Made by a program: the position numbers and the translations under genes
The notes under the pieces: model-generated
Seen by the model: only the letters and a program-made list of their open reading frames with translations
The model's database searches: none
Told to the model about the DNA's origin: nothing
Source: Microbotryum violaceum
Lineage: Eukaryota
Assembly (NCBI GenBank): GCA_001244265.2
Contig: CDLV01000005.1
Location: 1,612,001 to 1,676,000 of the forward strand
Direction of reading: 5' to 3'
DNA: 64,000 nt
Part shown: positions 2,509 to 61,800 of the stretch, piece by piece
How positions within the stretch are numbered: the first letter of the stretch is position 1
How the letters are laid out: each line of letters opens with the position of its first letter

Positions 2509-2925
2509 TGTGAGAGTTACAACTCTCTGTACTTCCTTCTCACATCATCTCCCTCTTTCTGTCTTGTCCTCTCTGTGATTTTTGGCCTGTCCTTCACCCT
2601 GCTCTATCATCACTGGGCTTGGTCTGTGCACCTGCATCAAGCGCACGGACCTAGTCACTCTCTGCCTGGCTCCCCTTGCCTCTAGGCTGGGTCCGTGCGC
2701 TTGGCACTGGGGCACGGACCTGGTTGCGCACTTGCCCCAGCCAACTGGTTCCGCGCTTCTCACTCTCCTGCTCAAGCAACTTCATTGGTCTGGTCTCCCT
2801 GGTCCGTCGATCAGAGACTCACCACCGCTTGAGCAGGTGTGTAATCTCAAGCAACTTCATTGGTCTGGTCTCCCTGGTCCGTCGATCAGAGACTCACCAC
2901 CGCTTGAGCAGTTGTACGGTTCATA
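2509..2925 (+). repeat. Family A 5' LTR (TG...TA) with two 66-bp units (2771-2836, 2846-2911), lacking the 70-nt GTGAGC..CAG segment of other A LTRs
   Basis: Comparison with LTRs at 7899, 8151 and 26898. Confidence 0.9.
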
Positions 2926-5900
2926 GGTTATAAGCCACAACAAGCTACCAGCGCGGTCACCTCCGTGCCCGCCCTCGTCGTCGTCGTTTTTTTTTTTTTT
3001 TTCGCGCTTCGCACGACTCAGCCTCGCCCTGCACCCTGCACGCCTGGCATGTCCGACGACGCCATGTCCTTAACGCCTGGCATGTCCGACGACGCCAAGT
3101 TCTTAACGCTCGCGGTCCCCCCACCGCGCCCTCCCACACAGGTCGCAGCCTTCGCTGTTTCCGACCTTCTGCGCGACACCAACGGCTATCAAGACTGGGT
3201 CCTGACGCTATGCTCCCGTCTGCCCTCCGACGTTATCGACTACCTTCAGTCTGGCGTCCCTTCGTCGTCCTGGCCGCCATCTTACGTTTCATTATGGGAT
3301 CACTACGCCCGCGCCTCGATCTGCGCCGCCGTCGACCCTCGGATGGTTCTTCCCGGCCTCTCGCAATACTTCGGCGACCCTCGCAGCGGTCACAAGATTT
3401 GGGTAGCTCTGCGCATGCGATATGGCGCTGTTTCGGCGGTCGATCTTCTCCCTGTCATCTCTCGACTCTTCAGTCCCGACCCTATGCCCGACACCGTCGA
3501 CGAGTTCCTTCAGTTTCGCGACCGATTCGAGAACGACTCCCGCCTCCTCGACGACTCAAAGGTGACGACGGATTCCCTACTAGCGTCACACTTGCTCGCC
3601 CGGATGCCCTCCTCCCTCTCCGCCTGGCGCACTACGTTTGTCAATTCTCAGGGCACATCCCGTACACTGCCCCCTTCCGCCGAGATCCTCGACCGTATCT
3701 ACCGCGAGATCAAGGCTCGTCCGGTCGACTCCCCCGTTGCCGCCACTACCACCTCTCAGCAACGCGTTCCCCATAGCCCTTGCCCCAACCCCTCTTGCCG
3801 AAAGATGCACTGGCTTCGGGACTGTCCCGACACCGCCTGGGCCGCCGCCTTCCGCGCCCGCAAGGCTGCCGCCGGAGCGACTTTGCGAAATCACAAGAAG
3901 GGTTCCCGCGCCGTCGCCTCTCCTGCCGTCACCTCCCCTGCCGTCGACGAGAAGTCAGAACCCGCCACCTTCACAGCGTGCCTCCTCGCCACTCCGTCTT
4001 CCTTTCCTAAGTCGGCTTGGCTCCTCGACTCCGGCGCTAATCGCCACATGGCCAACGACAGCCAACTCTTCTCCACCCTCCGGCCGTTCGCTGGCCCGCA
4101 CGTTGCTGGAGTTGCCGGTTCTCTTCCGTCCACCGGTTGTGGCTCCGTCTGCCTCTCGACGTCAGCTGGCCCCGTTGTAGCGACCGACGTCCTCTTGGTA
4201 CCTTCGCTCCCGTGCAACTTATTATCGGTCCGCCGCCTGGATTGACTCGGTTTCACCACCTCCTTCGGTTCCGGCCGCGCCACGATCCGCAACTCCTCAG
4301 GCACCGTCGTCGCCACGGCACAAGCAATTGCAAATGACCTATACGCGTTAACCGTCGCACCCTCACCCTGTATGCCCAATGCCCTCCTAGCCACCCCCAC
4401 AGAGTTTCCTTACTGACTATGCACTGTCGCTTCGCGCATTTACCCGTCGCGCAACTCAAGAGCGTTGTGCAGAAAGGTTTGGTCACTGGGGTGGATTGGG
4501 TATATTCAGAGGAAGAGGTTAGGTCTTTCAATTGCAATGCTTGTCTCGCTTCCAAAGCGCATGCCCTCCCTTTTGCTCGTTCCAAGTCCATTGCGTCCGG
4601 TCGCCTGGACCTCGTCCACGTCGACGTCGCCCAAATGCCTCGGGCCAGCTTCGGCGGTCATCGCTACATGCTTGTGATTGTCGACGACTACACCCGCAAA
4701 CATTGGTGCATCCTCCTCACTCACAAAAGTGACGTCTTTCACCGTCTCCGCGCCTGGATTCTTGAGGTAGAGAACGTCACGGGTGACCGGGTAAAGACTA
4801 TTCGCTCCGACAATGGTGGCGAGTTCACTCTTCGGAACTTTGTCGATTTCTGTGTGGCCAAGGGTATACGTCGCGAGCTCACTATTCCGTACACCCCTCA
4901 ACAAAACGGACGTGTTGAACGCACCAACCGCACCATCAAAGAGGGTATCCTTGCTTTACTCTACTCGGCAGGTGCTGACACGCGCCTCTGGGCTGAGGCC
5001 GCCACGTACTTCGTACACTGCAAGAACTTGATGCCGCACGCAGGCATTCGCGGTGATATCCCTGACACTCGTTGGTATGGCATTGCACCGGATGTATCCT
5101 CATTACGTGCCTTCGGTTGTCGTGCGTGGCACTACCTTCCCTCGGTTAAGCGCACCGCCCTCGATCCCAAGGCTGTGCCGCTCATGTTCGTAGGGCTCGA
5201 CGACCACGCGAAGGCGTATCGCCTATTCGACCCGGCTACACGCAAAATCCTCCTCAGTCGCAACGTCGTCTTTCGTGAATCCGAGTTCCCTGCCTTGCAG
5301 AGCGTGGTCGACACCCACACTGGCACCACTCCACTTCCTGTGGCCGCCGACATTCACCCCGACCAGGTAGACCACTCTGAGCCGTCGCTCGTTGCTTCCC
5401 CTCACTCTCTGGCGCCTCGTGCCGAGCCCCAGGACCCGCGCCCGCTGCCTTTGACCAAGGCCCGCGCCGTCCACTCCCGCCCGCGTCCTCCCTGACCAGG
5501 ACTCACGCGCGCGCCCTGCCTCTGACCAAGGCTCTCCTGCCTCCGACCAAGGCTCTCTTCCTGCCTCTGACCAAGGCTCTCTTCCTGCCTCTGACCAAGG
5601 CTCCCTCATCAACCGTACGGGTGGCCTCCCTGACCAGGACTCCCCCGACACCCACGCCTCTGACCAGGGCAGCTCCGACTCGGCAATCTCCACGCCTTGT
5701 CCATCCCTCGACCGGTGGTGCCACGTCCGTTGCCCGCGCCGTCCTTGCCCGCTCGATCCGAGTCCCCCGACCCTATCGACCTCTTGCCACGCTCGGGTGA
5801 TATCGCTTCCGTCTGTCTCGCACCTGAATTCCCCGACGACCTGGACGACGCCCTCCACTCGCCTCCACCTGTCGCCCACCTTGCCTCCGGTGTCGTCGCC

Positions 5901-6161
5901 TTGCTCAACACCGCGCCTACGGACTCGACGGAACTGATCGCGCCCGCCCGGGATCCCCTCACTGGCGTGCTGCCATGGCAACCCCTCAAGCTGACGAGTG
6001 GCGTCTCGCTGCCCAGGCCGAATTCGACTCACTTTCTCGCGATTTCTCCGCTTTCACACCAATTGATGAGTCCCTCGTGCCTGCAGATGCTAGGATCCTC
6101 GGCTCTCGATTCGTCTTCCGTACGAAACGCAACCAGCACGGTGAGGTCAAGTCTTACAAAG

Positions 6162-6413
6162 TATTAGGAGCAATATACCACTGCACCAAAAGGAGAGGCA
6201 CCTCTACTTCAGGGAGCGCATATTGTCCTAGAAGTGAGATGGAGGGAGGTTCAACACCCCCTGTGCGCAAAGCTGAAGAGCTTGTGGCAGTGGGTGCGGC
6301 TTTGAAGGCAAGTGCGGGGCGCGCACGAAATTTGCCTGACCCAGGGGGTGCGGCTTTGGAGGCAAGTGCGGGGTGCGCGCAAAATTGCCTGACCCCAGGG
6401 GGCTTGAACCCAT

Positions 6414-6444
<31 letters not shown>

Positions 6445-6539
6445 TATCAGGAGCAATATACCACTGCACCAAAAGGAGAGGCACCTCTACTTCAGGGAGC
6501 GCATATTGTCCTAGAAGTGAGATGGAGGGAGGTTCAACA
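6162..6539 (-). mobile_element. TRIM (non-autonomous miniature LTR retrotransposon), 378 bp, inserted in the A1 RT
   Basis: 95-bp LTRs 6162-6256 and 6445-6539 (one difference seen); TSD caaag 6157-6161/6540-6544; PBS 6414-6444; PPT (ccccc on +) 6257-6261; internal two-copy ~54-bp repeat 6292-6400; host RT frame [11 protein letters not shown] is restored on removal. Confidence 0.95.
6414..6444 (-). promoter_or_regulatory. Extended primer-binding site complementary to the D-arm and anticodon arm (5' half) of a tRNA-Met(CAT)
   Basis: + strand reads gagc-agctggta-gctc-g-ttggg-ctcataa-cc: D-stem GAGC/GCTC, then anticodon stem and CAT anticodon loop. Confidence 0.85.
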
Positions 6540-8150
6540 CAAAGGTCGACTTGTTGCCCGTGGCGACTCTCAGCGCTCGGGCATCGATTTTGACGAGACC
6601 TTCGCACCCGTCGCTAAGTTCACATCCATTCGCGCACTCCTCGCCCTCGCAGCCGTCCATGGTTACCACATTCATCAGGCCGACATTGACAAGGCCTACC
6701 TCCACGGTAAATTGGACAAGCCACTCTACATTCGCGTACCCGATGGAGTCTACATGCCGGGCAAGGTTCTCCAGCTGCACCGCTCTCTCTACGGCTTGCG
6801 CCAGGCTGGACGTATTTGGAACGACGAGATCGACTCTGCCTTGTCGGCTCTCGGCTACACCGCCACGGAGTCGGACCACTGCGTTTACGTTCGGGCGGCC
6901 GGTGATGAGCGTCACTATATTGCGCTCTACGTTGACGACTTGCTCATGATCAGCCCTTCTCTCCCAGAGATCGAGCGTACCCTCCACGGTCTCGAGCAGC
7001 GTTACGGCGTCAAACGACTTGGTCAGGCGGAATACATCCTCGGCATCCAAATTCGGCGCTCCAACGACGGCTCCATCACTCTCAGTCAGGAGCAGTACCT
7101 CAAGGACGTTCTTGCTCGCTTTGGTATGTCCGATGCTCACTCTGTCGCCACACCCATGCAGCCCGATCTCCGCCTCGAAGTCGAACTCCAACCCACCCCA
7201 TTCCCGGATCGAACTCGGTACCTGCAAGCGATCGGCTCTCTTATGTATGCTTCTACCGGTACACGTCCCGACCTTGCCTACACCGTCGGATATCTGGCTC
7301 GCTTCTCTCGTTCACCGTCTGCTGCTGCCTGGGGTGCGATCAAGCACGCCTTCCGCTACGTTGCCGGCACTCTATCTCACGGCTTACGCTACACTCATGG
7401 TGATCCGGCTCCCTTGGTCGGCTACTCGGACTGCAATTGGGGTGCATGCCTCTTATCCTCCAGATCGACTATGGGTTACAACTTTACCTACGCAGGTGCC
7501 GCCGTCTCCTGGTCCTCCCGTCTACAGTCACGCGTCGCCGACTCCACTTGCGACGCCGAGTACCTCGCTCTGTCCCACGCCGGCAAGGAGGCCATTTTCC
7601 TACGTCAACTCTTTGGTGAGCTTGGTCTCCCTTCTTCACAGCCCGTCCTCATCTACGGCGACAATCAGGGTGCCAATGCTCTCACCAAAAACCCGGTCTT
7701 CCATGCTCGCACTCGACACATTCGGCTTCGCGAACACTTTGTCCGGGATATGGTCTCCATGGGCGACATTGTCGTCCAATACATTGCCACCAGCGAGATG
7801 ACGGCGGATATCTTCACCAAGGCCTTGTCTCGTGACCTCTTTGCTCGGCACCGCGGCCGACTTGGTGTCTGTGCTCCCTGATGTTTGAAGTAGGGGGGTG
7901 TGAGAGTTACAACTCTCTGTACTTCCTTCTCACATCATCTCCCTCTTTCTGTCTTGTCCTCTCTGTGATTTTTGGCCTGTCCTTCACCCTGCTCTATCAT
8001 CACTGGGCTTGGTCTGTGCACCTGCATCAAGCGCACGGACCTAGTCACTCTCTGCCTGGCTCCCCTTGCCTCTAGGCTGGGTCCGTGCGCTTGGCACTGG
8101 GGCACGGACCTGGTTGCGCACTTGCCCCAGCCAACTGGTTCCGCGCTTCT

Positions 8151-16661
<8,511 letters not shown>

Positions 16662-18854: not shown

Positions 18855-21271
18855 TGAAGGTCCTCCGAACTGACAATGGTGGCGAGTACTGCTCGAGAGC
18901 ATTCACGGAGTTCTGCAAGGTGCGAGGTACGCGTCGACAATACTCTATCGGTCGCACGCCTCAACAAAACGGTCGGGCGAGCGGGTCAATCGTTCCATTG
19001 TTGAAGGTATTCTTGCCCTTCTGGCGGACGCCCATCTACCCAAGACATTCTGGGAGGAGGCTGCGGCTTACTTCGTTTACTGCAAGAACCTGGTTCAACA
19101 CTCGGCTCTCGACAAGGCAACACCGAACTCGGTCTGGCAGGGCGGACGCACTACAGCCTCCGCGCTTCATCCGTTTGGCTGTGCGGCTTGGCTCACGGTC
19201 GCGCCCGAATTCGCTCTAAACTCGACCCAAAAGCGGTTCGCGTTCTGTTCACACGGCTACGACTTGGCTTCCAAAGCCTTCCGCTTCTACGACACTACAA
19301 CAAAAAGGTCACCCTGGCAGAAATGCCACCTTCCTCGACACGAATTCCCCGGGTTATGTGGCGACTCCGCCGATCCAGACGATGACACGCACTTCGCCAG
19401 CGTCCCTTCGCCGACCCTCAAACCGCCGTCAAGTCATGGACCCCACTAGTAAGGTCGGCGCACATGGACGTCTCATCCCCTCTTGATGATTCTTCCATGA
19501 GCGCCGTTGACGTGGCCCCAGGGTACACTGGCGGATCCTTACTTAATCCCACAGATGCCGAATCGTCCGCGCACCGTCGCCTGCGCCGTCCTCGTCACTG
19601 TCTCCTGAACGGCCTCGTCCCCGCCGGCTGCACCATCGTCCGCGCTTCACCGTCGTTGGCTGCATGTTGTCACCTTCGCCTTACCCACTGAATCTGAGTA
19701 CTCCGCCGATCCTCTTGACCTCATCGGCTCACAGCCCCAGGCTCCCCTCGACCCCATGGACAACCCCCCCGACTTCAGCACGTACCGCGAGCCCGCATCG
19801 GCGAGGAGTCGCCCGAGAACTCGATCTCATTGGACGCCACTCTCACGACGAGTCCCCGACGAAATCGATTTCCTCACTCGCCATCACCGCGCGTTCATTG
19901 CGACTGACGACGACAACTCTGACACCGAGGCCATCGAACCCGTCAAATCCATTACGAGCGACCACAGACCTGGCGGGAAGCGATGTCGGGCGACAAATGA
20001 GGTATGGGCCAAGGCCGCTGCCGATGAGTTCAATTCCATGCGCGACGACTTCAAGGTCTTCACCATTGATGACCGTTCTACAGTACCTGCGGGCGCGACT
20101 GTCGTAACATCCAAGTTCGTCTGGCAAACAAAACGGAATGCACTCGGCGAGATCACCGGACACAAGGCACGGCTGGTAGCGCAGGGCAATCGGCAACGGG
20201 ACGGCATTGACTTCAACGAGACGTTCGCACCCGTTGCCCGCTTCTCTTCGATACGCTCACTCCTCGCGCTCGCGGCTGCCAACGGCCTGCATGTGCACCA
20301 AGCGGACATCGACAAAGCCTATCTTCACGGCGACCTCGATCACGACATCTGGATGACGGCACCAACGTTTGATCTTCCAGCAACAAGGTGCTTCGACTGC
20401 GCCGTTCCATCTACGGGCTCAAACAGGCCGGCCGAATCTGGAATCGACAAATCGACGCTTCGCTTCGCGACCTCGGTTACACGGTGACAGGCACCGATCA
20501 CTGCATATACTCTCGGCTCGATGATCGTCAACGCTCACACTACATCGCGCTGTACGTCGACGACCTTCTGATGATCAGCCCGGACCTGGCCGAAATCGAA
20601 CGCGTCATCTCGGGCCTGGAACAACGTTACGGTGTCAAACGCCTTGGACCGGCCGAGTACATCCTCGCATCCAGATCAGGCGTCTCAACGACGGCTCTAT
20701 CGCCCTATGCCAGGAACGGTACATCATGGACGTGCTCGCTCGGTTCCACTTCGACACTACGACTCGCGCGCACCATCCCCATGACCCCCGGTCTTTCGCT
20801 CACCGCCATTCCGGGCCAAGGCACGGAACAGATCAGGTCGTGGTATCTACAGGCAATCGTCGCTCCTCTTACATCTCGCTTGGCACTCGCCCCGACATCG
20901 CCTTCGCCGTATCTTACCTGGCCCGCTTTGCCAACAACCCGGGTCAGCGCCATTGGATTGCCGTCAAGCACGTCCTACGCTACCTCCGAGCCACTTATCG
21001 CGACGAGCTTCTCTACACTCGTGGAAAGACGGACATCAAGGGCGTGGTAGGTTACTCCGATGCCAACTGGGGTGCCTGCGTCGACACATCGGTCTCCACC
21101 ATGGGTTTTGTCTTCTACATTGCCGGCTCCGCTGTGTCCTGGTCCTCCAAGCGTCAATCGCGGGTCGCCGACTCTACCACCGACGCGGAATACCTCTCTC
21201 TCTCGCATGCTGGCAAGGAAGGGATCTACCTCAGTCAGCTGCTTGAGGAGCTCCATGTCCAGTCCGGTATC

Positions 21272-25659
<4,388 letters not shown>

Positions 25660-26636
25660 GATTGCTGTCAAGCACGTCCTACGCTACCTCCGAGCCACTT
25701 ATCGCGACGAGCTTCTCTACACTCGTGGTAAGACGGACATCAAGGGCGTGGTAGGTTACTCCGATGCCAACTGGGTGCCTGCGTCAACACATCGGTCTCC
25801 ACCATGGGTTTTGTCTTCTACATTGCCGGCTCCGCTGTGTCCTGGTCCTCCAAGCGTCAATCGCGGGTCGCCGACTCTACCACCGACGCGGAATACCTCG
25901 CTCTCTCGCATGCTGGCAAGGAAGGGATCTACCTCAGTCAGCTGCTTGAGGAGCTCCATGTCCAGTCCGGTATCCCCACTCACATCTACACTGACAACGA
26001 AGCTGCTGCCGCCGTCGCACGAGACCCTGTCTGCGCATCCGGGACTCGACATATCCGTCTGCGTGAGCACTTCGTTCGGGACATGGTGAATCGGGGTGAG
26101 ATTTCTCTTTTGCACGTGGGGACAAGCAACATGGTGGCCGACATTTTTACCAAGGCACTTGGCCCGAAGATTTTTTCCATGCATTGCTATGCTCTCGGCT
26201 TGCGCACTCGACATCCACGGCTTGGGTCTGCCTCGCATTCGCGTGGGGGGGGGTGTGACAAGTCTACTCTCAGCTCGGCAGAGGCGCCTCGGTCGGTGCG
26301 CGCACCCGCTAGCCCGCCCCCTGCGCTGGGGACTTAGACGCGCGCGACTGACTCAGCGCGCCAGCGCCGGGTGGATCCGTGCGCGTGCCCACTAGGCCGC
26401 CCCCTTGCGGTGGGGACTTAGGCGCGCGCGACTGCCTTAGCGCGCTAGCAACTTCACCCGCGACTGGGCCTATCCCAGCGCGGGTCCCCTTTCTATTTCT
26501 TAGCTTCCCTCTCACCACTTCTGTTCAACAATCGACCTCTCCTGACAGTAGTGGTGATTGTCTCATAGGTATGCTGAAATAGACCACTTCTGTTCAACAA
26601 TCGACCTCTCCTGACAGTAGTGGTGATTGTCTCATA

Positions 26637-26897
26637 GGTCGCGCCCGAACTTCGCTCTAAACTCGACCCGAAAGCGGTTCGCGTTCTGTTCACCGGCTAC
26701 AACTTGGCTTCCAAAGCCTTCCGCTTCTACGACACTACAACAAAGAAGGTCACCCTGGGCAGAAATGCCACCTTCCTCGACACCAAATTCCCCGGGTTAT
26801 GTGGCGACTCCGCCGATCCAGACGATGACACGCACTTCGCCAGCGCTCCCTTTGCCGACCCTCAAACCGCCATCAAGTCATGGACCCCACTAGTAAG
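26637..26897 (+). mobile_element. Family B internal fragment (integrase C-terminal region)
   Basis: Encodes ..[41 protein letters not shown].. as in B1/B2. Confidence 0.88.
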
Positions 26898-27492
26898 TGT
26901 GAGAGTTACAACTCTCTGTACTTCCTTCTCACATCATCTCCCTCTTTCTGTCTTGTCCTCTCTGTGATTTTTGGCCTGTCCTTCACCCTGCTCTATCATC
27001 ACTGGGCTTGGTCTGTGCACTTGCATCAAGTGCACGGACCTAGTCACTCTCTGCCTGGCTCCCCTTGCCTCTTGGCTGGGTCCGTGCGCTTGGCACTGGG
27101 GCACGGACCTGGTTGCGCACTTGCCCCAGCCAACTGGTTCCGCGCTTCTCACTCTCCTGCTCAAGCAACTTCATTGGTCTGGTCTCCCTGGTCCGTCGAT
27201 CAGAGACTCACCACCGCTTGAGCAGGTGAGCACTACACTTTCTAGTTCCTCTCTCCCTTCCATAGCCATGGTAACTTACTGTAGCACTTGAGCAGGTGTG
27301 TAATCCCAAGCAACTTCATTGGTCTGGTCTCCCTGGTCCGTCGATCAGAGACTCACCACCGCTTGAGCAGTTGTGTGGTTCATAGGTTATAAGCCACAAC
27401 AAGCTACCAGCACGGTCACCTCCGTGCCCGCCCTCGTCGTCGTTTTTTTTTTTTTCGCGCTTCGCACGACTCAGCCTCGCCCTGCACCCTGC

Positions 27493-28602: not shown

Positions 28603-33917
<5,315 letters not shown>

Positions 33918-35974
33918 CTTGGCTCCTCGACTCCGGCGCTAATCGCCACATGGCCAACGACAGCCAGCTCTTCTCCACCCTCCGGCCGTTCGCCGGCCCG
34001 CACGTTGCTGGAGTTGCCGGTTCTCTTCCGTCCACCGGTTGTGGCTCCGTCTGCCTCTCGACGTCAGCTGGCCCCGTTGTAGCGACCGACGTCCTCTTGG
34101 TACCTTCGCTCCCGTGCAACTTATTATCGGTCCGCCGTCTGGATCGACTCGGTTTCACCACCTCCTTCGGTTCCGGCCGCGCCACGATCCGCAACTCCTC
34201 AGGCACCGTCGTCGCCACGGCACAAGCAATCGCAAATGACCTATACGCGTTAACCGTCGCACCCTCACCCTGTATGCCAAATGCCCTCCTAGCCACCCCT
34301 CACAGAGTTTCCTTACTGACTATGCACCGTCGCTTTGCGCATTTACCCGTCGCGCAACTCAAGAGCGTCGTGCAGAAAGGTTTGGTCACTGGGGTGGATT
34401 GGGTATATTCAGAGGAAGAGGTTAGGTCTTTCAATTGCAATGCTTGTCTCGCTTCCAAAGCGCATGCCCTCCCTTTTGCTCGTTCCAAGTCCATTGCATC
34501 CGGTCGCCTGGACCTCGTCCACGTCGACGTCGCCCAAATGCCTCGGGCCAGCTTCGGCGGTCATCGCTACATGCTTGTGATTGTCGACGACTACACCCGC
34601 AAACATTGGTGCATCCTCCTCACTCACAAAAGTGACGTCTTTCACCGTCTCCGCGCCTGGATTCTTGAGGTAGAGAACGTCACGGGTGACCGGGTAAAGA
34701 CTATTCGCTCCGACAATGGTGGCGAGTTCACTCTTCGGAACTTTGTCGATTTCTGTGTGGCCAAGGGTATACGTCGCGAGCTCACTATTCCGTACACCCC
34801 TCAACAAAACGGACGTGTTGAACGCACCAACCGCACCATCAAAGAGGGTATCCTTGCTTTACTCTACTCGGCAGGTGCTGACACGCGCCTCTGGGCTGAG
34901 GCCGCCACGTACTTCGTACACTGCAAGAACTTGATGCCGCACGCAGGCATTCGCGGTGATATCCCTGACACTCGTTGGTATGGCATTGCACCGGATGTAT
35001 CCTCATTACGTGCCTTCGGTTGTCGTGCGTGGCACTACCTTCCCTCGGTTAAGCGCACCGCCCTCGATCCAAGGCTGTGCCGCTCATGTTCGTAGGGCTC
35101 GACGACCACGCGAAGGCGTATCGCCTATTCGACCCGGCTACACGCAAAATCCTCCTCAGTCGCAACGTCGTCTTTCGTGAATCCGAGTTCCCTGCCTTGC
35201 AGAGCGTGGTCGACACCCACACTGGCACCACTCCACTTCCTGTGGCCGCCGACATTCACCCCGACCAGGTAGACCACTCTGAGCCGTCGCTCATTGCTTC
35301 CCCTCACTCTCTTGCGCCTCGTGCCGAGCCCCCAGGACCCGCGCCCGCTGCCTTTGACCAAGGCCCGCGCCGTCCACTCCCCGCCCGCGTCCTCCCTGAC
35401 CAGGACTCACGCGCGCGCCCTGCCTCTGACCAAGGCTCTCCTGCCTCCGACCAAGGCTCTCTTCCTGCCTCTGACCAAGGCTCCCTCATCAACCGTACGG
35501 GTGGCCTCCCTGACCAGGACTCCCCCGACACCCACGCCTCTGACCAGGGCAGCTCCGACTCGGCAATCTCCACACCTTGTCCATCCCTCGACCGGTGGTG
35601 CCACGTCCGTTGCCCGCGCCGTCCTCGCCCGCTCGATCCGAGTCCCCCGACCCTATCGACCTCTTGCCACGCTCGGGCGATATCGCTTCCGTCTGTCTCG
35701 CACCTGAATTCCCCGACGACCTGGACGACGCCCTCCACTCGCCTCCACCTGTCGCCCACCTTGCCTCCGGTGTCGTCGCCTTGCTCAACACCGCGCCTAC
35801 GGACTCGACGGAACTGATCGCGCCCGCCCGGGATCCCCCTCACTGGCGTGCTGCCATGGCAACCCCTCAAGCTGACGAGTGGCGTCTAGCTGCCCAGGCC
35901 GAATTCGACTCACTTTCTCGCGATTTCTCCGCTTTCACACCAATTGATGAGTCCCTCGTGCCTGCAGATGCTAG

Positions 35975-36480
35975 TGTGATGTTGTCACACCTGCTCAAGC
36001 GGTGGTAAGTCTCTGATCGAAGGACCGAGGGAGACCAGACCAAGAAGTTGCTTTTTACACACCTGCTCAAGCGGTGGTAAGTCTCTGATCAAAGGACCGA
36101 GGGAGACCAGACCAAGAAGTTGCTTTTTACACACCTGCTCAAGCACTACAGTAAGTTACCACATCTAGAGGGGTGAAAGATGATAGGAAGAGTAGTGCTC
36201 ACCTGCTCAAGCGGTGGTAAGTCTCTGATCGAAGGACCGAGGGAGACCAGACCAAGAAGTTGCTTGAGCAGCAGCGAAACCAGAGTGGGGCCATTTGGCT
36301 GGGCCCAAGTCAGCCCAGCCAAAGTCAGGCGCACGGACCTGGCCCAGGTGCAGAGACCAGGCCCAGAGTGGAGAGCTAAGGTGGTGAAAAGTAGGCCAAA
36401 AGTGATCAAAACGAAGAGAGGAGGATGTTGAGGTAGGTACAAGATACAAGAAGGACATGAAGGAGATATTTGATCTCACA
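35975..36480 (-). repeat. Solo LTR related to family A (TG...CA), with three copies of the U5 unit and the GTGAGC..CAG intron-like segment; no TSD
   Basis: On -: tgtgagatc...acatcaca; unit ..gatcagagacttaccaccgcttgagcag x3; flanks gctag and aggcg belong to different elements (A3 and C1). Confidence 0.85.
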
Positions 36481-36653
36481 AGGCGCACAGAGCGAGGCTG
36501 GGACTTAGGCGCGCGGAGCGAGCCTGGGCCATTGGCTCACCCCCGAGGCTCGCTGGCTGTGGACTTGGCGCGCGTGGCTCTTTTGTTGTTAGCTTCCCAT
36601 TCATCACTCTTGGCTATAACTACACCGCTGACGTAGTAGAGTTGATCGAATAG

Positions 36654-36722
36654 GTATGTTGAAATGGATTCATCACTCTTGGCTATAACTACACCGCTGA
36701 CGTAGTAGAGTTGATCGAATAG
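36654..36722 (+). other. Predicted 69-nt spliceosomal intron at the U5/PBS junction of the C1 5' LTR
   Basis: TAG|GTATGT donor, GCTGAC branch motif 36696-36701, TAG acceptor completed by PBS G 36722; identical 55-bp units 36599-36653 and 36668-36722. Confidence 0.8.
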
Positions 36723-36820
36723 GTTATAAGCCCACGAGCTACCAGCCCCGCCGCTTGCGTTTTTTTTTTTCACTCGAGCCCAGCCACTCGAGCCGCACAC
36801 GTCCATTGCACCATCACATC

Positions 36821-39800
36821 ATGGACAGCTCTCCCGCCTCGCCTTTGGCCCCCAGGGATCCCAGCTCCCCTGAATCTTCGATCGGCGAACAAATCGCCAC
36901 TCTACAGGCCCAGCTTGCCGCTCTGCAGGCCTCGCAACCGCCGCCGCCGCCACCCCGGCCGTCACCGCCGTGCCGGGGAACGCCGCCACCGCATCCAAGG
37001 TCGTGTTTCCCAAGCACGCTCGTCTGGACGGCCCCAAGTCGTTCACCAACTGGTTGCGTCAACTCCGTCTTGCGCTTCCCAACCAGGTTCGCGGTTACGT
37101 TCTCGACGGTGTCATGCCCCCGACCTGGACCGCCGACCAGCTTGCCGCCCGTGACGACGCCGCCCGGGAAATCATCGTTGGCTCGATCGACTCCGCCGAC
37201 GTATCGGCCACCCTCGACGCCATCCCCAGCGACGACCTGTCGGCACCGCGCATCTTTGCCGCTCTCAAGGCTCGTTTTGCACCGGACGACGCTACATGCA
37301 CTCTCGAGTTGTTCGCTCGCCTTTGGGACTTCAGGACGATGCCTGCCTCCGTCGAGGCCTACGACACTTGGCTACGCGAGTACATGTCGATTGCTCAGGA
37401 AATACGCGACGCCAAAACATCGCTCAACGACGTGCTCGCCACCCACGTGCTCGCCATGGTCCCGTCTTGCCTCGACAGCTTCCGACTCACGTTCACGGAC
37501 GAGCAGCGAAACCGACGCGACCTTCCCGAACTCACGACACTTACGGACCGCATTCGCATCCAGCTTCGTTCGGCAGGACTCTCGACCTTGCATTCGGCCA
37601 TGCTTGCCACCAGCTCCCCCTGCCCCGCCTGCCGCGCTCCCGGTCACCGCCTGCGCAACTGCACTTCACGTGCGAAGCACCCGCCCACCGGCCCCTGCCG
37701 CCGATGCCAAAAGAAAGGTCACTGGGCACTTGACTGCAAGAACCGGGGTGAACAGGCACGTCGCAGCGACGACACCCAGGACGACACGTCTTCCTCCGCG
37801 GCTTTGCAACCGAACGTCGGCTATTTCGCCTCCTGCCTGTTCGCTCGTCGCCAACTCCCAACTGACGCCTTTGTAGTCGATTCGGGCGCCACGACACACA
37901 TGGTCGCCGACCGATCTCTGTTCACGACTTATCGTCAGACGGCACACACCAAGATCGGCGGCATCGCGGGTGGCATCACGGCTATCGGCGTGGGGGACGT
38001 GGCATTCGTCGCCAAGACTGGACACCCGATCACACTCCGTGGCGTTCTCCACACGCCTGGCCTCCACGTCAACCTCCTCTCTGTCGCTCGCCTCTGCAAC
38101 ACCGACCGGGTTCGCCTCGCCTTCACCAGCGACGGCATCGACATCACCAAGGACGGCCAGGCCATCGCTCACGGTACCAGGGTCAACGATGGTCTTTACC
38201 TTTTGGACGCGGATCACACCAAGTGTCAGCATCTTGCCTTTCTCTCACGCTCTGAGTCCCCCGTGCCCCTGCTTACCCTACACCGCTGCCTCGGCCATCT
38301 TGCCCCATCCTCTATACAGAAGATGATTGCTGCAGGTTTGCTGGACGGGTTTGGGGCCGGGTACAGTGACAAAGACGTGGAAGAGTTTGTTTGCAATGCT
38401 TGCCTTGGTTCCAAAGGCCACCGTCTCCCTTTTCCTGACTCTGAGTCGCATTCCCCCGAGAGACTTGGCCTCGTGCACAGCGATGTCCTGTCGTTTCCCA
38501 CTCCGTCCTTGACCGGGAAGCGCTACCTTGTCACATTCCTCGACGACCACTCTCGCAAACTCTGGGCATATGCGATCGATCACAAGAGCGACGTCTTCCC
38601 GATCTTCCAGACTTGGCTCGCCGAAGTGGAGTTAGCGACGAACGCGCGTTTGAGAATCCTTCGAACCGACAATGGCGGGGAGTATCGATCAAACGCATTT
38701 ACGGAGTTCTGCAAGTCCAAGGGCATACGTCGCCAATATTCTATCCCTTACACGCCTCAGCAAAACGGTCGCGCTGAACGTGTCAACCTCTCCATCGTCG
38801 AGGGCGTCCTCGCTCTCCTTGCGGACGCCCGTCTGCCGGCCACCTTTTGGGATGAAGCGGCTGCGTATTTCGTTTATTGCAAAAACAGATGCTCACACTC
38901 AGCTTTGGCCAAACAGACTCCAGAATTCGTTTGGAACGGCCAACGCACCACCGCCACCGCCCTCCACCCGTTCGGCTGCACAGCCTGGCTCACGGTCGCC
39001 CCGGACCATCGCAGCAAGCTCGACCCCAAGGCCGCGCGCGTGATCTTCACAGGTTACGACCTCGCCTCCAAAGCTTTCCGTTTCTTTGACCATTCCATCA
39101 ATAAGATTGTGCTTGGTCGCAATGCCACCTTCCTCGACAACGACTTCCCCGGCCTGCCAGTCACCACGCCCGTCGATGCGGACGACACCGACCGTCAGTT
39201 CGTCGTTCCCGCCGACACGCCCGCCCCTGCCGTCAAGACGAGGACCCCACTAGTAAGGTCGGCGCACATGGACGTCTCATCCTCCCTTGATGATTCTGCC
39301 ATGAGCGCCGTTGACGTGGCCCAGGGTACACTGGCGGATCCTTACTTAACTCTACAGACACTCGCTCTTCGTCGTCTCCATCGCTTTCCCCATTTTCGTC
39401 GCCGGCCACGTCCTCGGCCAGGGATCCGTCCCTCAACGACTCGGATGACCCGCTTGATCTCCTCAGCTCCAACACCGCGGTTCGCCTCAACCTGATGGAC
39501 GTGCATCGATCCGACGACGACACACCAGAGACGCAGGCACCAGCCGTTGACCCCGTTGGGCAGCCCTCCGATGACGACTCCCCCAATGAGATTGATTTCC
39601 TCTCTCGTCACCACCGCGCTTTCATCGCCACAGACGACGACGACCCCACCCTCGACGCCATCGAGCCCGTCAAATCGATCACTAGCGACCCCCAAACCTG
39701 GCGCGAAGCAATGTCCAGCGACGAGCACAACATCTGGGCTGAGGCTGCCGCCACCGAGTTCACCGCCATGCGCGACGACTTCAAGGTGTTCACCATCGAG

Positions 39801-41420
39801 CCTCGCTCATCCGTACCGCCGGGCGCCACCATCGTCACCTCCAAATTCGTCTGGAAGACCAAGCGCAACGCCAGCGGTGAAGTCACGGGGCGGAAGGCAC
39901 GTCTTGTAGCGCAGGGTAACCGACAGCGCAATGGCATCGACTTCTCAGAAACCTTCGCACCCGTCGCCCGCTTCTCCTCCATTCGCTGCCTCTTGGCTCT
40001 TGCCGCTGCCAACGGCTACCACGTTCATCAGGCCGACATCGACAAGGCTTACCTACACGGCGAGCTCGATCATGATATCTGGATGACGACACCACGAGGT
40101 TTCGACTTCCCAAGCGATAAGGTTCTCCGGCTGCGACGTTCAATCTACGGTCTCAAGCAGGCCGGTCGCATCTGGAATCGTCACATTGACACATCACTCA
40201 GGAATCTCGGGTACAAGGCAACAGGCACTGATCACTGCATTTACTCTCGCATTGACGATCAGCAGCGGCCTCACTATATCGCCTTGTATGTCGACGACCT
40301 CCTCATTGTCAGTCCCCACCTCGACGAGATCGAACGTGTCATCTGCGGCCTTGAACAGCGATACGGCGTTAAACGACTCGGCCCGGCGGAGTACATCCTC
40401 GGAATCCAAATCCGCCGCCTGGACGACGGCTCCATTGCTCTATCCCAGGAGCGCTACATCATGGACGTGCTAGCCCGTTTCCACTTTGACACCACGACAC
40501 GCGGCACTACGGTGCCGATGACGCCCGGCCTCTCGCTCACGGCAATTCCGGGTCAGGGAACGGAGCGCATTCGTTCGTGGTACCTACAGGCCATCGGCTC
40601 CCTCCTTTACATCTCCCTCGGCACTCGACCCGACATTGCCTTCGCCGTCTCGTACCTGTCCCGGTTCGCCAACAACCCCGGCCGCCGCCATTGGATTGCC
40701 GTCAAACACGTCCTTCGCTACCTTTGCGCCACGTACCGCGATGAGCTTCTCTATGCCCGCGGCCCAGCAAAAGTCACGGGTGTGGTTGGTTATTCTGATG
40801 CGAACTGGGGCGCCTGCGTCGACACATCCATCTCAACGATGGGCTACGTATTTTACTTGGCAGGCGCCGCCGTCTCTTGGTCGTCGAAGCGTCAGACTCG
40901 GGTAGCAGATTCCACCACTGATGCCGAGTACCTGGCCTTGTTGCACGCGGGTAAGGAAGCGATCTACCTTACCCAACTCCTCTCCGAGCTCCACGTTTCA
41001 CCAATCGCTGCAGCTCACATCTTCACCGACAACAAGGCCGCGGCCGCCGTCGCTCACGACCCCGTTTGCACCTCCGGCACCCGGCACATTCGCCTCCGCG
41101 AGCATTTTGTCCGTGACATGGTCAATCGAGGTGATATCTCTCTCTCACACGTTGGCACAGCAGACATGGTTGCGGACGTATTCACCAAAGCGCTAGGCCC
41201 CAAGATTTTTGGTACACATTGCTTTGCTCTAGGCCTCCGGACGCGACATCCACGGCTCAAGTCTACCTCGCGTTCGCGTGGGGGGGGGTGTGAGGAATCC
41301 ACTCTCTGCTCGGCTCAGGACTTAGGCGCGCGGAGCGAACCGGGCGCGGACTTAGGCGCGCGGAGCGAGCCGGGCGCCCCGGCCCAGGACTTAGGCGCAC
41401 AGAGCGAGGCTGGGACTTAG
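36821..41420 (+). CDS. Near-intact copia Gag-PR-IN-RT-RNaseH polyprotein of C1 (a few single-base frameshifts, possibly sequencing errors)
   Basis: ATG 36821 (MDSSPAS..); ORFs 36970-39495 (two CCHC-type knuckles, [14 protein letters not shown]) and 39495-41420 ([24 protein letters not shown]). Confidence 0.85.
39253..39357 (+). other. Conserved, self-complementary intron-like block in the IN-RT linker
   Basis: GTAAGG...CTTACTTAAC..ACAG; nearly identical at 11188-11291(-), 19449-19554(+), 23585-23690(-), 31000-31105(-), 47513-47618(-) although B and C flanks differ. Confidence 0.6.
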
Positions 41421-41587
41421 GCGCGCGGAGCGAGCCTGGGCCATTGGCTCACCCCTGAGGCTCGCTGGCTGTGGACTTGGCGCGCGTGGCTCTTTTGTTG
41501 TTAGCTTCCTATTCATCACTCTTGGCTATAACTACACCGCTGACGTAGTAGAGTTGATCGAATAGGTATGTTGAAATGGATTCATCA

Positions 41588-50252
<8,665 letters not shown>

Positions 50253-51578: not shown

Positions 51579-56470
<4,892 letters not shown>

Positions 56471-58800: not shown

Positions 58801-61800
58801 CAACACTTTGGTCCGAACTCCCAGCCCAGGTGCAATTCACACGCTTGTCACCACCAAGTCCCATGGGATCCCTTTACTTACCCTTCACCGTCGCTACGGT
58901 CATGCCTCTGTTCAGACACTTAAAAAACTGGCGGCCTCTGGCCAGGTGGAGGGTTTGGATTGGACCTATAGTGACCTTGAGTGTGTAGACTTCACCTGCA
59001 ACGCGTGCCTTGCATCCAAAGCCCATCATTTGTCGTTCCCCCCTTTGTTGTTCCACGCCTCGGAGCCGCTAGCACTGGTCCACTCGGATGTCTTGTCCTT
59101 TCCAGAGGAGTCGTTCAGCCACAAACGGTACCTCGTCACATTCATCGACGACTTCTCGAGGAAAACTTGGGTCTACCCCATCGGGCACAAGAGCGAGGTC
59201 CTTCCGATGTTTAAGGACTGGCTTATGGAGACCGAAAACGAGACAGGTCGCAGGGTCAAAACGCTCCGCTCAGACAACGGGGGTGAATACGTCTCTACCG
59301 CCTTCAATGGTTTTTGCGTGGCTCGTGGGATCCGTCGCGAATTGACCATACCGTACACGCCCGAGCAAAACGGTCGAGCCGAGCGGCTCAACCAATCTAT
59401 TGTGGAAGGCATCCTGGCTTTACTGATTGACTCGGGACTCCCACGTACGTGCTGGGACGAGGCTGCCAAGTGTTACATCCACACCAAGAACCTTTCGCCT
59501 CATGCGGCTCTCAAGGGAGGAGTACCAAATTGTTGCTGGTCAGGCGCCCCCCCCCCCCCGACCGTGGGAGCGCTTTGAGCATTTGGTTGTCGCGCCTGGG
59601 CCACCGTGCTGGCTCATCGTCGGGACAAACTCGATCCAAAAGGGATTCCGCTGGTTTTTGTGGGTTACAATTGACATGCGAAAGCCTGGCGCCTTCTCGA
59701 TCCCTCCTCGATGCGCGTGAGTTTGAGCCGGAATGTGACATTCCTCAAAACCGAGTTCCCCTTTGTTGCCGTTCCCGCCCATGTCACACCGCCTTCCGTT
59801 CCGGGTTTCTATCCCCGTCCTCCACCTGCCAACGCTCCGGCAACGCCGTTACCTCCCTTGCTCGTCGAACCCACCCAGCCGCCTTCGCTCGACGACGATG
59901 CCACTTCTTTGATCCACCTGCCGCAGCGTCCTCCGGAACCAGCACCACCGGAACCAACTCCACTCGCCAAAGTCAAGCCCACTTGGGAGTACGGCAATGT
60001 TGCCAAGGTTGGTCCCGATCCAGGGAAGTACGGTGAAATCGACGCTTGGAACATCATTGCTGGCCCCTGGACTCTCCGCCAACTCGTTCCCACCCTCATC
60101 ATGCGGGAAGACCTTGTTGGCGGACCTGATGGACCCACTCCCGCCTTCCAGGGCATGCTCCGTGCCTTTGCGTCCACCAAAGCCGGCTTTGCGGAGCACA
60201 ACTTATCCGTTGTCCGAAATCCAGCCAATTGGGGCAATGTCATCCGATCGGGACAACAGGACACGTGGGGTGGCCCGGCACACGACGAATTCAATTCACT
60301 TCTCAACGAATATGAGGTGTTCAACGTCATTGACTCCTGTGAGCTCCTCGCGGGTGAGATCCTCTTACGGTCGGGCTGGGTGTTCCGAACTAAGCGCAAC
60401 CAGCACGGGGACATCATCGATCACAAGGCTTGTCTCGTTGCCCACGGGTGTGCCCAACGCCCTGGCATCAACTTCGAGCAGAACTATGCCCCCGTCGTCA
60501 AGTTCACGTCCATTCGGGCTCGCCGCGGCCAACGGCTACCATGTCCATCAAGCCAATGTCAACAAGGCGTACCTCCACGGCAAACTTGACAAGCCTCTCT
60601 ACATGTGCGTTCCACAAGGCATTGACATGCCTGGCAAGATCCTCAGGCTGTCCAAATCCATCTACGGACTTTGCCAAGCGGGCACCATCTGGAACGCGGA
60701 GATTGACTCAACTTTGTGCTCCCTTGGATATGTGCCCACCCGATCGGACATCTGCATCTACCGCCGCAAACACGACGGGCACTCTCATTACATTGCCTTG
60801 TACGTTGACGACTTGCTGTTGGTTGGACCCTCTACCGCCGAGATCGACAGGGTTCTCGACGTGTTGGAACTCGCATATGGTATCAAACGTCTCGGGCCTG
60901 CTAAATACATCCTCGGCATCCAAGTCAAACGGGGGCACAACGGGTCCATCACACTTTCCCAAGAACGCTACCTTCGAGATATCTTGGCCAGGTTCCAAGT
61001 CGCCGATGCCAAGCCGGCGAGCGTCCCCATGCAACCCGGTGTCGTCCTCGATTTCAAGAACTCGTCTGCTACCCCTGAGGATCGCACTTGCTACTTGCAG
61101 GCCATTGGTTCGTTGATGTACGCCGCGGTTGGCACTCGTCCGGACCTCGCTTTCATGGTCAGCTACCTCGCGCGCTTCTTGCAGCAACCCGGCCCGGAGC
61201 ATTGGACAGCCATCAAGCACATCCTCCGCTACATCAAAGGCACACTGGACTTGGGGCTCACCTACCGCAAGACCAACCAACCGCTCCATGGCTACTCGGA
61301 TGCAAACTGGGGAGCCTGCCTGACAACCTTGCGATCGACCATGGGCTACGCATTCATCTTGTCCGGAGCTGCCATTGCTTGGTGTTCCAAACGGGAGCAC
61401 AGGGTCGCCAAGTCTACTACCGACGCGGAATACCTCTCTCTTTTGTACGCTAGCGGGGACACCATTCACCTGAGCGAACTCCTGAGCAAACTCGGCGCTC
61501 CGGTTCCCGGTCCAGTCGTGCTCTATGGTGACAACCAAGGTTCGCTTGCTCTGGCACAACACCCGACCAACCATCAGGGATCTTGTCACGTTCGCATCTT
61601 GGAACATTACGTCCGCGAGAGGGTTGCTGAGAAAGAGATTGAGGTCCGCTACATCGCCACTGGCAACATGTTTGCCAACATCTTCACCAAGGCCTTGGGT
61701 CCCAAGCCATTCATCTTCCATCGGACGAATTTGGGCTTACGAGGTGCAGTGGTATGACAGCACGGGGGGGTGTCAGAGTGTATATTGCTGTTTCATCCCA

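Follow-up and report, generated by a model that had tools for sequence, protein, structure and literature searches.

A nucleotide-constrained GT..AG block between integrase and reverse transcriptase of Microbotryum copia elements, a possible retained intron

Ogre, a Ty3/gypsy retrotransposon of plants, carries an intron inside its pol region, and splicing is required to join its open reading frames (ORFs). In the plant Ty1/copia elements EVD and BARE1, a short intron is located within the coding region, its splicing leads to a frameshift and an early stop, and spliced and unspliced RNAs coexist, as outlined in PMC5580714; the same source presents the gag RNA of Drosophila copia, by which a Ty1/copia element likewise uses host splicing to obtain less Pol than Gag. 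Here we describe a block of 104-106 nucleotides (nt), beginning with GTAAGG and ending with ACAG, that is shared by six copies of two Ty1/copia families, B and C, in a 64,000-nt stretch of the Microbotryum violaceum genome (contig CDLV01000005.1, positions 1,612,001 to 1,676,000; the whole of this stretch is referred to as the window). The principal carrier is c39, a family C element at 36481-41633 on the + strand with long terminal repeats (LTRs) at 36481-36721 and 41393-41633, where the block (39253-39357, +, 105 nt) is situated between the integrase (IN) and the reverse transcriptase (RT). The block is the slowest-evolving part of the element. We tentatively favor the reading, to which we assign a likelihood somewhat below even, that it represents a nucleotide-constrained, structured and mostly retained intron, the removal of which would yield a product devoid of RT.

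The overall arrangement is similar to, but distinct from, that of the plant elements as PMC5580714 describes them. As in EVD and BARE1, the host is a single-ORF Ty1/copia element in which splicing is predicted to shift the frame and to leave only the upstream proteins. The plant intron, as presented there, lies at or around the protease (PR) domain and the spliced RNA encodes Gag only, whereas the block follows the integrase and the predicted product is Gag-PR-IN, with RT and RNase H (RH) being lost. In further contrast to what that source reports for EVD and BARE1, the block is fixed throughout at the nucleotide level, is protein-coding if retained, has its donor paired in a predicted fold and is found in a basidiomycete host. 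The Drosophila copia intron is described in the same source as spanning ~3 kb and taking out the whole of Pol, whereas the block, at 101-106 nt, would act by frameshift. Compared with Ogre, the relationship is inverted, since retention of the block keeps the ORF whole and splicing breaks it. By analogy, the strategy of the block would be a variation on the splice-plus-frameshift scheme of plant and fly copia, here controlling RT dosage. In the open literature, covered mostly as titles and the beginnings of abstracts, we found no paper on an IN-RT intron in fungal or Microbotryum copia, no usable account of the splice-site consensus in Pucciniomycotina and none of the donor form GTNNGY.

A blastn search of the window with 39243-39360 as query returned six copies, all at 94-100% identity, located at 39243-39360 (+) and 47512-47628 (-) in family C and at 11187-11301 (-), 23584-23700 (-), 30999-31115 (-) and 19439-19555 (+) in family B. 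The block proper, taken as the GTAAGG..ACAG stretch, is 106 nt long in c47 (47513-47618, -), c23 (23585-23690, -), c31 (31000-31105, -) and c19 (19449-19554, +), 105 nt long in c39 and 104 nt long in c11 (11188-11291, -), with the bases missing from the two short copies being single bases in short runs. The c39 block lacks one C of a C-run, and contigs from two other sequencing runs have an extra C behind position 39319. These lengths, as well as the GTAAGG start in phase 0 and the ACAG end, both invariant in all six copies, are as given in the first-pass annotation of this DNA. Together with 10 nt of upstream coding sequence, the block forms a conserved nucleotide island (39243-39358, +) that is apparent from the blastn matches, the identity profile and the substitution counts alike.

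When families B and C are compared in a 100-nt sliding window, the block emerges as the top identity peak of the element (0.92) within its least conserved region (0.2-0.6), which bears out the earlier description of near-identical copies embedded in poorly alignable surroundings. Between the two families, we count 5 substitutions in the 105-106 sites of the block, compared with 26.5-27.5% in the flanks (binomial p ~2e-9 to 5e-9), for which 1.5 kb upstream and 1.3 kb downstream of the block served as reference. Within family C, 2 of 105 block sites differ, compared with 12.4% in the flanks (p 1e-4), and within family B 0-1 of 104-106 differ, compared with 2.6-9.4% (p 0.06 to 3e-5), where the copy pairs underlying all of these tests share history and are not independent. 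The rate drops ~six-fold at all three depths, as steady purifying selection on nucleotides would predict and a single recent conversion would not. Because the two LTRs of an element are 99.0-99.2% identical in c11 (99.0%), c31 (99.2%) and c39 (99.2%, with 2 mismatches in 241 bp), the divergence between copies appears to stem mostly from replicating lineages rather than from decay in place.

The conservation extends to third codon positions, which match at 32 of 35 sites in the block when c39 is compared with c31, as opposed to 176 of 363 in IN and 114 of 246 in RT (~48%). Families B and C differ at four codons of the block, two of which are non-synonymous (S/P and A/S), arguing that the protein is not what is protected. 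This bears directly on the idea of a constraint on the 35-residue peptide (VRSAHMDV...LLNST), which could act, for example, as an IN/RT protease cleavage site or as a docking motif. The peptide is nearly constant in 52 gene models that read through the block, and it sits where IN/RT cleavage would be expected; however, the synonymous sites are equally fixed, half of the differing codons change the residue, and a cleavage site requires ~8 residues rather than 35. We therefore consider a peptide-level constraint to be very improbable.

Judged from the sequences compared, the conservation is at the nucleotide level and is not that of a conversion tract confined to these copies, an alternative raised by the first-pass annotation that loses its footing since substitution is slowed within each family as well. 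A related scenario would have the block be a functionless island of homology that is kept alike by template switching or gene conversion between co-resident families. Recombination between the families does occur, with one crossover at the block itself in the gene models P0001, P0002 and P0061, and the identical B/C runs of 41 and 52 nt inside the block are what a conversion test would flag. Yet the block tree follows the family tree, with B-specific variants fixed in 4/4 copies and C-specific variants in 2/2, and a similar drop at every depth is unlike one recent transfer. Moreover, flanks of such low identity are too unlike to seed a tract ending at the block edges, such that prior conservation would be required, and the IN and RT cores, at 80-89% identity, do not exhibit comparable homogenisation. 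Overall, this scenario strikes us as improbable.

For corroboration, the first-pass annotation had looked to a sliding comparison of B and C, which gave the peak described above, and to Rfam and covariance-model searches. Rfam yielded 0 matches at E up to 1 for the region 38000-41000 on both strands, and a covariance model of the block found no homologue beyond these copies in the window, including in copia families A, D and E. The matches of the model in the window comprise the six copies, the hairpin of these copies, which as a palindrome is also recognised when read from the opposite strand, a truncated seventh copy (E 0.44) and five weak matches (E 1.7-9.2). A gapped pattern of both block ends had 0 matches in viral contigs. 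Its sole match in metagenomes, contig L001, was rejected as a probable chance match; blastn of it against the window was empty (E 1e-3, word 7), a search that also missed the two 12-nt pattern ends, which are probably too short to score at this threshold. Judged by eye, the flanks of L001 resemble bacterial coding sequence. Relatives in protein databases are all named Microbotryum.

Within c39, Pfam places zf-CCHC, Pol_BBD, gag_pre-integrs, rve and SH3_retrovirus in 36970-39492 and RVT_2 in 39495-41417, corresponding to the order CCHC, protease barrel, pre-integrase, integrase core, SH3-like domain and RVT_2. The block is positioned ~100 nt past the end of the SH3-like part of the integrase (amino acids (aa) 657-727 of the ORF) and ~560 nt ahead of RVT_2. 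Its GTA is a phase-0 codon of the IN frame, and 106 retained nt comprise 35 codons plus one base, such that translation can pass from IN across the block and linker into the beginning of RT without a change of frame. In c23 and c31, a single frame runs from IN through the block and a Ser/Pro/Ala-rich linker to a conserved DPLDL motif, and in c23 it continues as far as HHRAFIAT, where the RT region begins. In c39, the Gag-PR-IN reading frame (36970-39495, +) passes through the block and reaches a stop at 39495 solely from the 1-nt loss inside the block, and the RT(-RH) reading frame (39495-41420, +; RVT_2, E 1.7e-59) can be followed back without interruption into the 3' part of the block. Relative to the donor, frame 0 is open from -2382 to +240 and the RT frame from +59 to +2165; the two overlap across the lost base, indicating that this region contains no other ORF-breaking lesion. 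Once the 1-nt loss is allowed for, the host is a single-ORF Ty1/copia element, and gene models of 1466-1595 aa are present in relatives. A one-frame unspliced form, which the proposed full polyprotein requires, is seen in c23 and c31, in c39 with its lost base supplied, and at 52 of 117 sites in the gene models described below.

Removal of 106 nt in silico opens an Arg-rich frame that stops before RT, and removal of 101 nt, from the GTCGGC donor, produces a short hydrophobic tail that also stops before RT. Counted from the donor, c39 meets its stops at +240 or +193, and the B copies with the 101-nt cut meet theirs after 18-19 codons; in all, the stop is encountered 18-45 codons later in family C and up to ~125 codons later in the Arg-rich frame of family B. 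The Arg-rich tail envisaged by the first-pass annotation is reproduced by the 106-nt removal, but not by the sole joined molecule that we observed, which lacks 100/101 nt and would encode a hydrophobic tail. An overlapping ORF in another frame was dropped as a candidate, as frames 1 and 2 have stops inside the block, and so was a slippery site for ribosomal frameshifting, as no X XXY YYZ heptamer is present ahead of the hairpin. A tRNA-primer-like reading of TGGCGGATCC was considered from sequence and dropped.

Two candidate donors are present at the 5' end of the block, GTAAGG (39253-39258, +) and GTCGGC (39258-39263, +), the second of which forms the 5' edge of the joined molecule, and a candidate acceptor, ACAG, is present at the 3' end (39354-39357, +); all three are invariant in 6/6 copies. 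The four pyrimidines ahead of ACAG vary between copies only between C and T. The A of a branch-site-like CTTAC is located 14 nt before the AG, and this candidate branch site fits the loose form yTnAy rather than CTRAY.

The minimum free energy (MFE) fold is Y-shaped in all six copies. A 7-bp closing stem, AGTAAGG/CCTTACT, is formed between 39252-39258, which contains the first donor, and 39340-39346 (+), which is invariant in 6/6 copies and contains CTTAC. Above it, a long imperfect hairpin at 39260-39310 (+) establishes the core of the fold, accompanied by a small second hairpin. The stems proposed from inspection, namely AGTAAGG/CCTTACT, GGCGC/GCGCC, CATGG/CCATG and TCATC/GATGA, are all recovered in the MFE fold of each copy, where both candidate donors and the branch-like CTTAC reside in paired regions. 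Relative to shuffled sequences, the MFE fold has z-scores of -2.7, -2.7 and -2.85 in the three 106-nt B copies, with 1-3 of 200 shuffles being as good, whereas the 104-nt B copy gives a less marked value (z -2.06). The 7 variable positions are found mostly in loops, at a stem end, in a G-U wobble or outside the closing stem, although they are too few to carry weight (p ~0.1 by our own estimate).

Contigs from four sequencing runs (X1, X2, X3 and X5) were examined, the kind of run being unknown or guessed and three having been guessed to be RNA. One contig of X3, with a length of 390 nt and a depth of 9 compared with ~100 for block-bearing contigs, joins 39257 to 39369 with 11 other letters in between. 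These letters correspond to what family C carries just downstream of the block, 9 of the 11 agreeing with c47 in a hand count, and therefore the contig lacks exactly 39258-39357, with GT..AG edges. The 3' edge of this joint is the acceptor that had been predicted beforehand, and the 5' edge is GTCGGC, 5 nt downstream of GTAAGG; the junction 39252|39358 named in the first-pass annotation was not found among the contigs of the four runs. The depth pattern and total contig sizes suggest that X3 and the other examined runs are genomic DNA, in which case the joint would fit a genomic copy derived from reverse-transcribed spliced RNA.

The bond at the 5' edge of the X3 deletion recurs in a seventh, internally deleted B copy (26627-26897, +), which ends after GTAAG and is followed from 26898 by the LTR of another copia family. 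In this copy, the LTR at 26280-26639 is joined straight to the last ~260 nt of the integrase region. The abutting LTR begins TGTGAGAG... and occurs also at 2509 and 7899. The shared bond may reflect chance, a fragile site or a preferred target.

Gene models from Microbotryum provide a second view of the same region. Among 140 proteins, 110 contain 117 anchor sites and 30 are without an anchor. The anchor is followed by a read-through of the complete 35-residue block peptide at 52 of 117 sites, by a partial or frameshifted block at 6, by TPLVRC, which fits a cut at GTCGGC, at 4, and by no block at 55. The read-through group includes the 1576-aa model P0061, which stands for 110 sequences, and across its three species the peptide is nearly constant, with three haplotypes accounting for 39 of the 52 models. 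In models of M. silenes-dioicae, M. saponariae and M. intermedium, the region is cut in more than 20 ways, often round frameshifts. Some models are cut after TPL, corresponding to donor GTAAGG, with at least 10 different in-frame acceptors, and some after TPLVR, corresponding to donor GTCGGC, and joined either at ACAG or at a second AG lying 7 nt beyond it; one model has the exact junction of the first-pass annotation. According to PMC9004411, the annotation of these genomes relied on EuGene with Microbotryum training and on similarity to proteins, and no RNA entered it. The models were consequently rejected as proof of splicing, being ab initio or similarity-made with many cuts and avoidance of frameshifts. 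That a gene finder tuned to the host chose both GTs and the ACAG hints weakly that these signals are compatible with host introns.

The gene models P0001, P0002 and P0061 and their relatives are inter-family chimeras, with a family C IN and block, a family B-type Ser/Pro linker and a family C-type RT, and with crossovers at the 3' end of the block and in an 11-residue protein stretch. The recombinant P0061 appears to be the most abundant lineage in M. saponariae. In the more distant copies P0077, P0023 and P0014, from M. intermedium and a third family, the block peptide is much changed or partly gone, with C-to-T and G-to-A transitions apparently behind many of the changes. Such copies may have decayed, and the block would accordingly not be fixed in every lineage.

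Conservation, reading frames, signals, a predicted fold and one GT..AG joined molecule are what is observed, and on this basis we suggest that the block is a weak spliceosomal intron that is normally retained and is selected at the nucleotide level. In the retained form, Gag, PR, IN, RT and RH would be translated as one polyprotein, and the same RNA would double as the full-length genome. At the base of the Y-shaped fold, the 5' splice-site region, with its GTs at 39253 (GTAAGG) and 39258 (GTCGGC), is predicted to pair with the branch-like CTTAC, and this donor-branch pairing would keep splicing inefficient. Removal of the block, from the GT at 39258 or 39253 to the AG at 39357, would shift the frame and always bring a stop before RT, so that the spliced RNA would direct synthesis of Gag, PR and IN, but not of RT-RH. 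We infer that the spliceosome made the X3 joint and that splicing proceeds at a useful rate, and the element would then use splicing to hold down RT-RH or to sort its RNAs between translation and packaging. The observation in the first-pass annotation is confirmed by our analysis, and its interpretation as a retained intron is partly supported.

Several lines of evidence weigh against a retained intron. Splicing is a prediction only, since no sequencing run on record as RNA was found to carry the sequence, and just one low-depth contig, from 1 of 4 runs and probably of DNA, shows the joined form. Its joint makes use of GTCGGC rather than the stronger-looking GTAAGG, and a 2-nt AG microhomology is present at both edges of the cut. 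A contig of X3 also exchanges 38223-38319, a stretch of 97 nt with GT..AG ends in the IN core, for two letters, and this 38222-to-38320 deletion coincides with a gap in the integrase core of gene model P0003. The loss appears to be a deletion in DNA that the data sets have in common or that arose in them more than once, and its messiness indicates that GT..AG-ended deletions arise without clean splicing. The fold, too, is less secure than the B copies would suggest, because the family C fold energy is unexceptional (z -1.12 and -1.27), C-specific substitutions weaken the hairpin, and RNAalifold, run with 20-nt flanks, detects a compensatory change in 0 of 36 pairs. Its consensus keeps the long hairpin but swaps the closing stem for another pairing, in which upstream coding sequence pairs with the middle of the block and GTAAG is left in a small loop. 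Among the gene models, the 55 of 117 sites without the block include a model standing for 43 sequences, and if such models reflect the DNA, the element can replicate without the block. The ~100 fixed bases exceed what an ordinary intron requires, namely its two ends and a branch site, and the conserved island reaches 10 nt beyond the GT on the upstream side and tapers off ~8 nt short of the AG, an offset that matches the fold better than the intron. Finally, the functional logic is the weakest link: the truncated product keeps PR and IN, such that an excess of Gag over Pol would be only partly served. For this reason, the setting of a Gag:RT ratio, as the first-pass annotation proposed, fits the usual logic poorly.

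Some of these observations are better accommodated by a cis-acting RNA or DNA element of replication, with a role in, for example, dimerisation, packaging, export from the nucleus or some stage of reverse transcription, for which the GT..AG ends would be incidental and the joined contig would reflect a jump of the reverse transcriptase across the fold. The fixation of nearly every base is more in line with a folded or protein-bound element than with an intron, the island that is offset from GT..AG coincides with the closing stem plus the 10 upstream bases, and the long hairpin is stable in every fold. A signal shared across families would also allow co-packaging, which fits the chimeras P0001, P0002 and P0061, and the AG microhomology at the deletion edges is in keeping with a jump. 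The X3 deletion, however, is not bounded by the stem base: it opens partway through the 5' arm and closes 11 nt beyond the 3' arm, precisely at the predicted acceptor, with GT..AG ends. The unexceptional family C fold energy, the lack of covariation and the lack of an Rfam match count against a structured element as well. Known packaging and dimerisation signals of Ty1 and retroviruses are, furthermore, found near the 5' end. Taken together, we regard a purely cis-acting role as possible but rather unlikely.

A retained intron and a cis-acting element may also both be true. In retroviruses, structured RNA that overlaps the 5' splice site, and is thus present only in unspliced RNA, marks full-length genomes. 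By analogy, a structure within the intron would mark the unspliced full-length RNA of the copia element, although the retroviral packaging signal is located in the 5' leader and the block is located mid-genome between IN and RT. Extended further, the block would operate as an RNA switch embedded in a protein-coding region, in the form of a retained intron in which the Y-shaped fold holds donor and branch site together and which sorts transcripts into full-length, RT-RH-coding RNAs that are replicated and spliced, RT-less Gag-PR-IN messages; its sharing across families would in addition promote co-packaging and the formation of chimeras. We consider this fuller scheme unlikely, yet worth stating.

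Fungal introner-like elements are ~100 nt in length, with a stable structure, full splice signals and near-identical copies. The block recalls them in each of these respects, raising the question of whether a mobile intron entered both copia families. All 7 of the 7 copies in the window, however, occupy the same copia site, and removal breaks the ORF and retention preserves it, opposite to what is expected of an inserted intron. Furthermore, the depth bin containing the block is not above its neighbours in X1, X3 and X5, and 24 of 25 protein matches are copia polyproteins, the remaining one being low-complexity. Introners, a class treated in general terms in PMC12130899, are scattered in unrelated host genes and are spliced to restore the ORF, whereas the block is confined to one copia site and must stay. 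We deem an introner origin extremely improbable.

The window as a whole, with a GC content of 58%, is a nest of LTR retrotransposons that comprises at least five copia families (A, B, C, D and E) and one gypsy-type element (53165-56303, -), mutually nested. Family A is present at 2509-8721 and 33950-35974, family D at 42166-45713 (-) and family E at 58808-61754 (+). No host gene was recognised in the window, where a Pfam scan of 20 ORFs, with 16 further ORFs of at least 250 aa outside the scan, assigned retrotransposon domains to 17 and gave no match for 3. In families C and B, each LTR includes a tandem pair of a 57-nt unit, the two members of which show 100% identity to each other (36599-36724, 41511-41633 and 26514-26639). 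The family A LTR contains 66-72-nt tandem repeats (35986-36370, 2656-2915, 8380-8628 and 27045-27376), and one family A tandem-repeat block is inverted and directly upstream of c39.

The balance between structural and enzymatic proteins in single-ORF copia elements is known for fly and plant elements, but not for fungi. A folded, coding, retained intron at the IN/RT border would, if true, split off only the polymerase, unlike any described case, and an RNA switch of the kind outlined above would be a third way of limiting the polymerase in LTR retroelements, beside ribosomal frameshifting and gag-only subgenomic RNAs. Should the block instead be a packaging or export signal, it would be the first internal signal of this type proposed for a fungal copia element. 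The block would also illustrate clearly how an RNA can be under selection within a disordered protein linker, and it would serve as a marker of inter-family retrotransposon recombination on the transposable element-rich, non-recombining chromosomes of anther-smut fungi.

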